NCBI GenBank assembly: GCA_964016885.1
Contig: OZ024745.1
Span: forward strand, 26,598,001 to 26,662,000
Direction of reading: 5' to 3'
DNA from: Eledone cirrhosa
Lineage: Eukaryota
DNA: 64,000 bases
Part shown: positions 8,976-57,873 of the stretch, piece after piece
How the letters are laid out: each line of letters starts with the position of its first letter
Position numbering within the stretch: position 1 is the first letter of the stretch
Made by a program: the position numbers and the translations under genes
Notes under the pieces: model-generated
What the model was told of the DNA's origin: nothing
The model's input: the letters and a program-made list of their open reading frames with translations, nothing else
Database searches by the model: none

Positions 8976-9954
8976 CATGTGGGTTGACGGTAGGTCTAAA
9001 CATGAAATTTACAGCTCACACCTTTAAATGTTTAAGTGAACATCTACACGGTTGCAGATCATAAAAGTTTTCTTGGATCTTTTAATAATAGGGGCCTCTA
9101 CTCCTATCATGATGAGCAACATGAAATGCCTTGCTCAAAACCACAACATGGTAGCAAGTTAATGACCCTAAACCAACCTTATCAATTCCACAGCCTAAAA
9201 TCATATGCCATGCAACTTGCCCGCAGAAAGTATTGAATACATTTTAATACATTTAAATACAAGGAAAGGAGAGCTTAAAGGAGCTGTGTGCTAATTCACA
9301 GAGTAAATAGACAAGCAATTATGTATTATGGGACATTCAAGTAATAGTTGTAGTTTTTTTTTTCGAAGAGGAAATCATATTAAAATTATATCCCAGCCCC
9401 CAATCGACCACACAGACACACACACATACACACACATACACACACATACACACACATACACACACATGCACAAACACATAACACAAAAACCAAGTTTACG
9501 GTTTCATAATTGCATTACTATTAACCTATGTATATATATATATATATATATATATATATATATATATATATATATATATATATATATATATATATATATA
9601 TATATATATATGTATATATATAAGTGTATCAAACTAGACAAACTGAGTTTGTGCTAGTACTTTGAACTTTTATATATATATACATGCATATATATAGATA
9701 TAGATATATACACATATATATATATATATATATATATACACACATATATATATACACATATATATATATATATACACATGTATATATATAGGTATATGTA
9801 GGTATATATACATGTATATATATATATATATATATATATATATATATATATATATATATATATATATATATATATATATATATATATATATATAAAATAT
9901 TAAAAAAATAATGAATAAAACAATGAAACAGTTCCTTATATTAAACAAAAAAAG

Positions 9955-10108
9955 TTCATTATTTAACGATCGTTTCTAGGATATATATGTGTTAGAATTG
10001 GCATGCATATTCAACAGATCTATGTACAAAATTATACAAAATTATACAAACTATCAAAATTAAATATACATACCAACACATATATATGCCGTCTTCAGAA
10101 ATAATGAA
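9955..10108 (-). ncRNA. Type-I hammerhead ribozyme with ~115-nt stem II
   Basis: ttcattattt-CTGAAGA-[catatatatgtgttgg...ctaacacatatatat]-GAAA-C-GATC-G-TT-aaataatgaa. Perfect 10-bp stem I, palindromic loop III, GUU cleavage triplet. Confidence 0.8.
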
Positions 10109-10853
10109 ATATATTTATTGATAATAACAACAATTCAAAATTACAGGTCTGTTTGGGAACAGAGTTCAAATTGACCAATGAAAATACAAAAAGTTTATAC
10201 AGTTAGGTGTGTGTATATATATGTAAGTAACTTCGTTCACAGTTATGCATAAAGATATATGTTCACATGCATACGCATGCCAAAAAGATGTATGTAAATA
10301 CAAAAATTCAAGGCTAATGTCTCTGTAAGTCTATAATCTACAGATAAAATACGCACACACATATATAAATATAAAATAAATATATACACAGATTCATATA
10401 CTCACACATATACGTACATTCACACACACACGCGCGTATACGCATAAAACATACACACAACCACGAACATACATACACACACACACACCCACACATATAT
10501 ATGTGTATATACTATTATCATAAGCATATAGACATTAATGCGCGCACATAAACACTGCCACACATATTTAGATCCAGATACAGAAAGTGGGTGGGGGGAG
10601 AGAGGTCAGTATTCACCGGTGTCAGCAGACTGCCTATTTATAAATGTATCTATAAATTTAGAGATAAAAAGAAAAGAAAAAGAAAAAAGAAATATATCAA
10701 GAAAATATATATATATATATATATATATATATATATATATATATATATATATATATATATATATATATATATATTTATATTTATATATATATATATAAAC
10801 AAGTAAAATATAAAATATACATCGATATACATACATATACATATATATATATA

Positions 10854-11462
10854 TGGTGGCTGCCAACTCGTTTTCGAGTACGGCCACTACTTTATATCCA
10901 TGTAGGAGAACCCCTACTGATGCGCTGAACGAGTGTGACTTTTTAGTCCAGCCAGCGACTTGAAAGCTCTGGTACAAACACTACACTTGTGACAATTATT
11001 GACACATAGTGCTGGGCCCATGGTACCATGTGACGACAAATGCAGAGAGATCTCCAGATATAAAGCAATGCCTGTGCCGTGAAGCTTTTATAGTGAGCAA
11101 AGGCACTGCACAAAGCCAGTCCCACTCTCTTAACCAAGATGATATTTACCAAAAAGAAGAACAAGTCAACATCATTGGATACCATCAGGGTTGCAGGTGT
11201 TATATCAGAGTTTTCCTTCTCCTAGAATTCTGCCTTGACAAAGGCTAAGGGGTCATCTCTCCCGGTGATTTTGGATGGCCATTGACTCTTAAGAGCTCCT
11301 TTGCCTTTTGACAGATTTTGTTTTTAGTCCTGCAGGATGTCCAAAGTCACCCTCCTCACCAAGAAACCTTGGTGGGGTTGCCAGTTTAGTCGCCAACGAC
11401 CCGACCATGGGACAGGTTGTACTGGAATACATGTTACCAGTAGCACCAACTGGTGACCTGAC
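10854..11462 (-). mobile_element. Non-autonomous RTE-related element; second partial copy at 15666-16041
   Basis: About 375 bp are near-identical to 15666-16041. The minus strand has 'ctggcaaccccacc' and 'ctaggagaaggaaaactctga', which resemble RTE 5' UTRs. Confidence 0.6.
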
Positions 11463-54939: not shown

Positions 54940-55450
54940 CAAACACACGCTCTCATAAGCTCACAGACGCACACACACACACACATACATACATATACAT
55001 ACACACACATACATACATACACATATACACGCGTACACATACACACATACGCTCACTCACGCACACACACAAACACACGCTCTCATAAACACACAGACGC
55101 ACACACACACACAGAAACACACGCTCTCATACCAACACACAGACGCACACAAGCACACACACACAAACACACGCTCTCATAAGAACACAGACGCACACAA
55201 GCACACAAACACACAAACACACGCTCTCATAAGCACACAGACGAACACAAGCACACAAACACAAACACACGCTCTCATAAACACACAGACGCACACACAC
55301 ACACAGAAACACACGCTCTCATACCAACACACAGACGCACACAAGCACACACACACAAACACACGCTCTCATAAGCACACAGACGCACACAAGCACACAA
55401 ACACACAAACACACGCTCTCATAAGCACACAGACGAACACAAGCACACAC
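54940..55450. repeat. CA-derived minisatellite, ~40-45 bp unit (acacacgctctcataagcacacagacgcacacaagc)
   Basis: About 10 recurrences of gctctcata. Confidence 0.85.
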
Positions 55451-56269
55451 ACACATACATACATATACATACACATAAACACGCGTACACACACACATAA
55501 ACAGAAATATATGCTCTCGGACATCCTACTGGTGGCCTGGAAATTCACCGCATAGAGAACTACTTCTTGTCAGTCGGAGTCACACAAGCGACATCAAGGA
55601 AGTAGTCCGAGATATTGACATTATTCTCTTTATATGTGTCTGTCTATACATAAACATTTATCTTCACTCACTCTCGCCCCCTATCTCTCCCTCTCTCTCT
55701 GTGTATATATATATATATATATATATATATATATATATATATATATATATATATATATATATATATACATACATATGTGTATATATATACATATTTATAT
55801 ATATATATATATATATATATATATACATACATATGTGTATATATATACATATTTATATATATATATATATATATATATATATATTTATATATATATATAT
55901 ACATATATGTATATAAATACATACATATATATATACATATATATATGTATATTATATATATATATATATATATATATATATATATATATATATATATATA
56001 TATATATATATATATATATATATATATATATGTATGTATGTTCACAAATGTATGTATATATATATGTATGTATGTATTTATATACACATATGTATGTATA
56101 TATATATATATATAAATATATATATATATAAATATGTATATATATACACATATATATATATATGCGTATATATGCAAGTATTATATAAATATATGTGTGT
56201 GTGTGTGTGTATACACACACACACTCACACACACACACAAGAGAGAGAGAGAGAGAGAGAAAGAGAGAG

Positions 56270-56580
56270 AAATAGAAATATACACGGGTGTGTATGATTG
56301 TGTATAGAAGATTATATTAATAAAAGGAATTCCAACATTGTCTGATTTACTCGTTTTATTTACAATCCTTTAAAATTTCTAATGGTATTAGAATGAAATA
56401 GTATGGTGGAATATTAAATGTTAAGTGTTAATTGAACAAGTACTTTCATGCTTTCGCAATCTTCAGGTTCTTATTGTGTGGTGACAGTCAATTTTGTAAT
56501 TCTAATACCACTAGAAATGTTAAAGGATTGTAAATAAAACGAGTAAATCAGACAAAGTTGGAATTCCTTTTATTAATATA
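56270..56580 (-). mobile_element. HHR element with ~80-bp inverted arms (56314-56394 / 56499-56580) abutting (TA)n
   Basis: tatattaataaaaggaattccaac..tggtattagaat is mirrored, with an HHR between the arms. Confidence 0.8.
56434..56470 (-). ncRNA. Minimal type-I hammerhead ribozyme
   Basis: gaac-CTGAAGA-t-tgc-gaaa-gca-t-GAAA-GTAC-TT-gttc. Palindromic loop III and GNRA-capped stem II. Confidence 0.82.
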
Positions 56581-57873
56581 TATATATATATGCGTATATA
56601 TGTACGTATGCAAGTATTATATAAATATATGTGTGTGTGTGTATACACACACACACTCTCTCTCACACACACACACACACTCGCACACACACACATATAT
56701 ATATATATATACATCCTCTCGATTTATTTACGAAGCGTCGGAATATTTGAAATTTGAGAATATTGTCAGCCAATGCTGACGATAGTCATATTTGATAACT
56801 ATCAAAGTTAGATGTTTCAGCTATCATTTACAGTTATCAACTCTTTTTATAGTTATTCGCATTTTGGCAACGATACGCTCTCTCTCTCGCCCTCTCTCTC
56901 TCTCTCTCTCTCTCTCTCTCTCTCTCTCTCTCTCTCTCTATCTCTCTCTCTCTCTCTCTCTCTCTCACACACACACACACACACACACACACACACACAC
57001 ACACAAAGAGGTGAGAGAGAGAAATATGTAAATTCCTGGCTGCGGCGCCAAACGGTTTTGGCTTTTGTCACCGATGTCGAAATTTTGCTCATCTCTATCT
57101 ATACCCACTCAGAATCTTCCCATGTACTCCCATGATTAGTCACAGCACTGAAGACTCTCTCACTCTCTCAGTCTCTCTCTCTCCCTCTCTCTCTCTCTCT
57201 CTATATATATATATATATATATATATATATATATAGAAAGGATGAATATAAAATGAAAGTGCTTTTGTTAAAAAAGGAATTTATTAGGTATTGACATATG
57301 TTTCTGTAACAGACCGAATACCTATGTATCGCTGCTTGCGTAATCATATAATGTTAGCAAGTATTCGATAGCAAATGTATAATCAGTTGTCACTTCTTCA
57401 GAGATTTTGGATAAACTGGATAAAATCAGAAAAATTGAAGTATTATATTAGTAAAAGAGGAAGGAACAGAGGGGATAGAATATGACAGATGGTAAAATAA
57501 TTTACTGCTAAACAAGTATATAATGGGTTTTTAATGAGAATACCATGAGTAAATCTAAATAAGAATTTTGTGAGTGCCAATTTTAATCTCTACTTGACCA
57601 ACTGGACAGTGGACAGGGCTGGTCATTTGGTGCAGTAGTATTAACTATAAAGTGTCAATTGGGGAAGGGGGAGATTTCGATTGCTACTAAATAACATCAA
57701 TGCTAGTATCCAGCTGGTATATGCACTAGGGAATTGAATCAAGAAATCAGAAATCTCATTTTATCTATAGCAGTTTGTATTAAAAGGTAAATAATAGAAG
57801 AGTTGATAGAATTAAGACTAATAAAGAATGTTCATATCTATTTTGACAATAAAACGGGGATAGAGACAGGCGT

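Follow-up and report, generated by a model that had tools for sequence, protein, structure and literature searches.

The stretch of DNA analysed here (the window) comprises 64,000 nucleotides (nt) of the 3.0 Gb genome of Eledone cirrhosa (GCA_964016885.1, OZ024745.1, positions 26,598,001-26,662,000, forward strand), is 65% AT and contains abundant (TA)n. Self-comparison of the window recovered eight inverted structures belonging to seven families, A to G (Table 1). By their sequence features, the insertions are endonuclease-positive (EN+) Penelope-like retroelements (PLEs), and every family has two 3´ ends, a long and a short one, that are fixed and mostly match the (TA)n target. A sequence-only reading of the window had listed the same eight structures with the correct junction letters, those at 14402 and 56314 being minus-strand readings, and had proposed that the short arm almost always stops at an internal TA where the second target strand primes.

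The PLE assignment draws on layout and coding content. Partial tandems (pseudo-long terminal repeats, pLTRs), an inverted truncated copy and a one-sided tail are all present. Family G encodes an intact 773-amino acid open reading frame (ORF) with reverse transcriptase (RT) and GIY-YIG parts in locus L375 (L375:3838-6156), and its tandems are ~3.1 kb. The G protein gave a BLASTP match (E=3e-9) to an RVT_1-positive ORF and had neighbours in the Atlas at 0.96-0.99, some of which include GIY-YIG or RVT_1 members; neither Pfam nor PDB, searched directly, returned an RT match. It carries RWK, DKT, the CxCX5C linker, CxxC and CxH, is without CCHH and has a (TA)n target, which are the motifs of the Hydra clade. 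The family A ORF has RWR, DKT, CxCX5C, CxxC and CxH, that of family E is an N-terminal start seen in one copy, and the A and E read-through ORFs resemble that of G, likeness to the printed Hydra proteins being judged by eye. Family B, which has no visible ORF, was assigned to the Hydra type by its stem (see below) alone. Family F and one flanking family (cluster 4) carry a Neptune-type C-terminal nuclease with a CX2-5CxxC linker and CCHH, motifs that were read by eye in ORFs upstream in L146 and L167; no ORF was found for families C and D. A hammerhead core pattern matched in C, E and F and the same pattern found no match in A, B, D and G; there was no hammerhead among the Rfam matches listed (150 of 353), which were driven by microsatellites or palindromes and fell below the gathering score. 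Beside one family G tandem lie pieces of an unrelated PLE-like RT ORF (L374:7138-9480).

Table 1. Arms, stems and repeat copies in the window, in window positions (UTR, untranslated region).
Feature	Position	Strand	Remarks
Family A short-ended arm	9892..10557	-	terminates in (TA)n; 97% inverted match to 12782-13439
Family A long-ended arm	12782..13573	+	short site TAT 13437-13439; tail 13440-13573; putative Hydra-type ORF next in read-through copies
Family A bulged stem 1	13444..13524	+	ACTC-TGTA...TACA-TT-GAGT; fold z=-3.5
Family B long-ended arm	14326..14463	-	short site 14402-14404; stem 1 14373-14396
Family B short-ended arm	14466..14485	+	~17 nt plus TAT
Family C short-ended arm	16322..16408	-	
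Family C long-ended arm	16420..16776	+	tandem-type unit; candidate hammerhead core from 16588; short site ~16738; tail ~34 nt; without RCTC stem
Family D short-ended arm	24755..24802	-	
Family D long-ended arm	24826..24917	+	short site TATA 24869-24872; without complete RCTC stem
Family E short-ended arm	31776..31945	-	
Family E long-ended arm	31955..32222	+	short site 32130-32132; candidate hammerhead core from 32031; stem 1 32137-32156
Second family E copy (the exception)	33227..33522	+	52-bp palindrome 33227-33278 against (TA)n, microhomology 0; stem 1 33440-33459; long end normal
Family F long-ended arm	56281..56498	-	Neptune-type nuclease upstream in other copies; candidate hammerhead core ~56466; short site ~56313; without RCTC stem
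Family F short-ended arm	56499..56580	+	
Family G short-ended arm	57236..60026	-	5´-truncated Hydra-type RT plus GIY-YIG ORF, then 3´ UTR
Family G long-ended arm	60027..60925	+	short site TA 60819-60820; stem 1 60825-60854; tail ~105 nt
~190-bp repeat	6984-7174, 18595-18783, 28647-28834, 32513-32654, 35896-36087, 36331-36497, 44581-44766, 47156-47342, 51076-51251, 52723-52912, 54132-54323		

The 3´ ends were mapped in the 30 best-matching loci of each family. In A, C, E and G the query lay upstream of the short end; B and F were searched with their entire insert, and the family D query took in the tail. For E and G, queries consisting of the tail alone supplied 30 further loci each. Among tract-terminated arms no more than 15 nt from the short site (for G, all non-long arms), those stopping exactly on that site numbered 18/20 in A, 66/79 in B, 7/15 in C, 21/28 in D, 58/68 in E, 22/23 in F and 30/31 in G. 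Family G arms as a whole ended at the short site in 30 cases, at the long site in 37 and elsewhere in one, and the same terminal base recurs in unlinked copies. The interval from short to long site is the published PLE tail, ~32-180 nt long in the families studied. The internal TA stop of the sequence-only reading is accordingly not an opportunistic site: the short site is fixed per family as the known tail boundary, and the long end is internal too. Copies of a family are not independent tests, so the family site was taken as the unit of counting. Several insertions can be seen stacked in one TA tract, giving tail-to-tail palindromes around it (L184, L199, L069, L078). In F and in the C copy of the window, the long end often runs through (TC)n or TCTA before (TA)n (16777-16794, 56240-56280; L121-L150), possibly by RT slippage or on compound targets.

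Microhomology was counted as the long-arm bases that still match the tract adjoining the short arm. It was 3 nt at 13439, 14402 and 32132, 4 nt at 16738 and 24872, 5 nt at 56314, 2 nt at 60820 and 0 nt at 33227. The window copy has ATATATAT at 16738, unlike most copies of the family, which have ACATAT, and its local alignment extends to 16744; the family value of 4 was used. As the sequence-only reading had stated, only 33227 lacks a match, the other seven having 2-5 nt; this copy is an atypical member of family E (that of the 32132 junction), a 26-bp fold-back ending ~157 nt before the normal short site of the family. Summed over the window junctions, microhomology was 24 nt versus 9.2 nt in a local null of junctions simulated within 30 nt (p=0.0035), and seven of the eight had at least 2 nt (p=0.0002).

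We extended the count by scanning the window blind, together with 1.0 Mb of arbitrary tiles and 0.86 Mb drawn from the search loci, which yielded 256 events. After exclusion of 41 (31 symmetric or near a tract, 6 with a short tract and 4 of low complexity), the 215 asymmetric events formed 55 clusters and, with family A added by hand, 56 junction clusters, at least four of which (35, 45, 50, 51) are long ends compared with read-through copies. The modal microhomology averaged 3.02 nt, compared with 1.03-1.22 nt in local and shuffled nulls and 1.92 nt in a best-phase null, a mean matched by 0 of 200,000 simulations; 37 of the 56 clusters had at least 3 nt. The 30 clusters found in tiles alone gave 3.07 nt (1.04 expected), and the observed mean still exceeded the strictest null, which took the best of 6 neighbouring positions in 2 phases (2.48 nt, p=0.0015). 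Comparison with AT-matched nulls, as the sequence-only reading had proposed, thus left an excess in the window and among clusters. For a junction shift on (CA)n targets there were only 4 cases, too few for a trend.

The long end could be assessed where a tandem or read-through copy shows how the sequence continues; automated read-through mostly caught interrupted tracts, and true cases were read by eye. The match to the tract was 3 nt in G, A and B, 6 nt in E (one copy each for B and E) and 5 nt in clusters 18 and 51, and it was 0 nt in two families, cluster 52 and clusters 23/35. A TA match was therefore present in 6 of the 8 families having a read-through copy, and the long end is the same kind of site as the short end, internal and TA-matching.

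Beyond the match, RCTC begins within 1-12 nt in 32 of the 56 clusters, against 3.5 expected, and pairs with GAGY after a 2-base bulge starting with U (RCTC...UN-GAGY); the strict stem motif was found in 23 clusters, against 1.0 expected. When anchors were chosen without a pairing rule, inner pairs 1-3 formed in 30, 29 and 25 of 33 cases versus 19.0, 22.1 and 12.6 on permutation. The outer pair was A-U in 11 and G-C in 14 versus 2 mixed (p=1e-5), and the wobble count (13 G-U versus 4 A-C) favoured the sense strand. A second copy of the stem lies 3´ of the long end in family G. In family A, a second stem predicted beforehand had 320 genome matches versus 0 for the control, and the full motif was present in 12/12 loci read; its loop is ~105 nt, in tandems with a ~6-7 kb period (L379-L390), so the loop size is free. 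Family B, family E and clusters 51, 52 and 23/35 likewise showed a second stem, each in a single copy, and cluster 18 a partial one. The distance from junction to stem was 6-9 nt in 22 of 29 cases and independent of the length of the match (rho -0.08), placing the match on the primer-pairing side; such constant spacing is suggestive of a ruler. In Hydra-type families, then, each 3´ end lies ~6-9 nt before one of two covarying bulged stems. The 27 clusters without the motif (16 and 47 counted among them) had a mean microhomology of 2.93 nt. In short-tailed families without the RCTC stem (clusters 2, 4, 5, 9, 39), AC-rich or GTGT/ACAC sequence lies just beyond the short end.

The two ends are strictly coupled. 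Among 189 head-to-head insertions, 183 joined a long-ended to a short-ended arm, 3 were short+short and 3 long+long, and five more family A pairs, each spanning two loci, were all long+short. These pairs fit priming from both target strands, which, along with the microhomology above chance, is the part of the sequence-only proposal that stands. Comparison of the two arms of each insertion at columns polymorphic in B, E, F and G gave 796 concordant and 17 discordant cases, versus 323 discordant expected, and both arms thus derive from the same sequence variant. We also compared 5´ truncation in 154 pairs, leaving out B loci L181-210 and F loci L121-131, where the query spanned the inversion joint. 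The long arm was the shorter one in 50 pairs, against 15 for the short arm (p=2e-5). Stops of long arms were denser in the zone reaching from 35 nt before the short site to 20 nt after it (4.2 per kb) than elsewhere (1.9 per kb, p=0.003), and short-arm stops in this zone amounted to 2.2 per kb. In 24 of the 154 pairs, the long arm was essentially tail only, which would correspond to an L1-like outcome. A search for empty sites gave candidates for 11 of 202 insertions, several of them spurious, and target-site duplications would hide inside (TA)n; TA tracts are already present at the informative empty sites (L114, L117/L118, L296), which does not favour TA synthesis entirely de novo.

We propose that PLE insertions with two fixed 3´ ends per family probably arise by programmed twin priming on one RNA that is read twice. 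Both strands of a (TA)n tract would be cut and each would prime reverse transcription on the same RNA, starting at one of two built-in sites, long or short. One protein copy may dock on each of the two stems, the start being set by the distance from it, and the last 2-5 nt of the primer may pair with UA(U) at the start site, which would act as a minimal primer-binding site. PLE ORFs are not known to carry an RNase H domain. None is listed for the Poseidon element PAc of Anolis in the available part of PMC11167929 (published sources are cited here for the parts available to us). If the RNA survives copying, the enzyme from the long site could displace the short-site complementary DNA (cDNA) and re-read the RNA, yielding an inverted duplication; stalling at the second primer would instead yield an L1-like inversion with little or no duplication. 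The cDNA ends would then be joined head to head. The sequence-only reading had named two templates, a re-read template or snap-back synthesis as possible routes to an inverted duplication, and the re-read template is the one that fits. In a further-reaching version, plausible but tentative, the PLE tail would be the footprint of obligate, hard-wired twin priming, in which a dimer sits on two motif copies, each fronted by an evolved UA(U) matched to the microsatellite. A single RNA would then be copied by two RTs, one from either side of a double-strand cut, and the rear RT would displace the front product.

Several observations weigh against twin priming on a single RNA or limit its reach. Of four G inserts fetched with both ends, three were long+short and one, L373, was long+long. 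The shared polymorphisms would equally allow two RNAs of one source locus, or later conversion between arms. The break-off signal is strong in E and B and present in A, and it is absent in C (5 versus 5) and G (6 versus 5). Twelve of the 56 clusters have a microhomology of only 0-1 nt, and not every cluster counts as an independent family; PLE arms may not account for all of them. The stems are weak when folded alone: neither G copy folds (z +0.9, +1.3), and E and B fold modestly. The window families C, D and F are without the stem, but their ends are paired in the same way and with the same microhomology; the general cause is therefore not the stem.

One alternative, which we consider unlikely, is that protein and RNA structure set both starts without primer pairing, the TA being kept for another reason, such as nuclease recognition of element DNA or a promoter. 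PAc does initiate without homology (PMC11167929), the family E junction lies 7-8 nt from the stem in variants with a match of 2, 3 or 5 nt, and 12 of the 56 clusters have at most 1 nt. However, the match extends on the primer-pairing side of the fixed point, is present in Hydra-type and Neptune-type families alike and is in phase with the target repeat.

Slightly less likely still is snap-back, in which one cDNA from the long site folds back and copies itself, the second strand stopping at the short site and joining the other target end through TA microhomology. Such self-priming has been proposed for rotifer Penelope palindromes (PMC3846280), and it would account for near-identical arms and for the near-perfect palindromic centres found in 5 of 11 G pairs, which are equally expected if both cDNAs reach the same RNA end. 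Snap-back alone, however, cannot produce a short arm that extends beyond the 5´ limit of its long arm, and 50 of the 65 unequal pairs have just this arrangement; the tail-only long arms argue against it as well, deletion of the centre afterwards would not be expected to shorten the long arm preferentially, and the TA and stem anatomy shared by the long end points to two equivalent start sites.

We regard dual priming, in which each target strand would be primed with an RNA molecule and an enzyme of its own, as quite improbable. It needs no strand displacement, has been proposed for L1 (PMC2837659), and a single strongly expressed source would give RNAs with polymorphisms in common. Independent choice of sites, though, allows at most 50% long+short pairs, and 97% were observed; many variants coexist, yet the arms agree at 796 of 813 sites, which disfavours two independent templates, and long-arm stops near the short site are left without a reason. 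An artefact of AT-richness, of alignments over-extended into TA tracts, as aligners tend to run into them in sequence that is 65% AT, or of later deletion between tracts is very improbable and was rejected, since the nulls measured simulated junctions identically, the cluster-level excess persists and ends recur at one base across unlinked copies.

Other repeats were noted in the window. About a dozen copies of the ~190-bp repeat (Table 1) are 80-94% identical, and those read stop before (TA)n or TAT-type runs, with variable continuation. A 152-bp near-perfect palindrome at 19335-19486, without flanking (TA)n, is possibly a miniature inverted-repeat transposable element (MITE). A 374-bp pair (10855-11228 and 15668-16041) is 97.6% identical, one copy lying in the family A insertion spacer. 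Older PLE-type RT fragments at 23778-24718 and 62666-63604 are 78% alike, the first being interrupted by the family D insertion and its TA tract, and a degenerate family B-like copy at 2560-2685 is divided by a short TA tract.

PLEs are the closest relatives of telomerase RT. If twin priming is hard-wired, they would use an integration route without conventional 5´-end joining, distinct from the routes of long interspersed nuclear elements (LINEs) and long terminal repeat (LTR) elements. The analysis gives exact RNA bases for mutation, namely UA(U), the stems and their spacing; L375 supplies a young intact protein, and the data frame a yes/no test of twin priming versus dual priming versus snap-back. 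The stem motif also provides a rule for locating both ends and assigning non-autonomous families.

The tail, the inverted copy and the two start sites are already published. Our literature search, with the 2005-2006 PLE reviews, the Drosophila virilis nuclease paper and some supplementary figures outside its coverage, found no paper on target TA pairing, strict long+short coupling or the twin stem; for microhomology this negative excludes the supplementary junction figures of PMC11167929, which could bear on it. A word search of the available text of a retrozyme preprint (10.64898/2026.07.22.740005) found neither "tail" nor "stem-loop". The origin of the PLE tail and inverted copies is named as an open question in PMC8557442, and the tail has been attributed to nuclease resolution (PMC8557442; PMC3846280).

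Compared with known systems, the insertions share with the described EN+ PLE unit a head-to-head, inverted 5´-truncated copy, a tail at one end, partial tandems and (TA)n targets (PMC8557442; PMC3846280), a layout also given in PMC8969392. Published tails are 30-40 nt, whereas those here span the longer range given above, one-sidedness is counted here (183/189), and target microhomology is found at both ends. Family G shares its motif set and target with the Hydra clade PLEs of PMC8557442, and the twin stem is not mentioned in the available part of that paper. By eye, the twin stem can be seen in coral and sea-cucumber Hydra consensus sequences (twice in Hydra-1_Ajap, and in Hydra-2_Ajap and Hydra-2_Amil), with a variant in Hydra-1_Crog; in the Hydra-1_Obim consensus it is not clearly present.

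PAc, which in vitro starts at two internal sites on both strands and was modelled as a dimer (PMC11167929), resembles our families in that its tail is delimited by two internal start sites, cutting and extension affect both strands, a dimer is predicted and a stem-loop lies near the start. Its starts are reported as non-homologous to the target and inside an AC-rich stem-loop, whereas those of the present families share 2-5 nt with the target and precede twin bulged stems; the AC-rich or GTGT/ACAC stretch of the stemless short-tailed clusters recalls the PAc stem-loop, and the available part of the PAc paper does not treat inverted pairs. This comparison suggests that the "no homology" result for one Poseidon element does not extend to microsatellite-targeting clades. 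In L1 twin priming, base pairing at an internal position of the RNA lets the second target strand prime inverted cDNA on that same molecule (PMC2837659), and microhomology at the second priming site is the shared feature. L1 uses an opportunistic site, a first primer on poly(A) and inversion-deletion, whereas the present elements use two fixed internal sites and usually give duplication. The likeness to L1 twin priming drawn by the sequence-only reading holds for the microhomology; the arms are mostly duplicated, as that reading had noted, with the tail-only long arms (24/154) as an L1-like minority.

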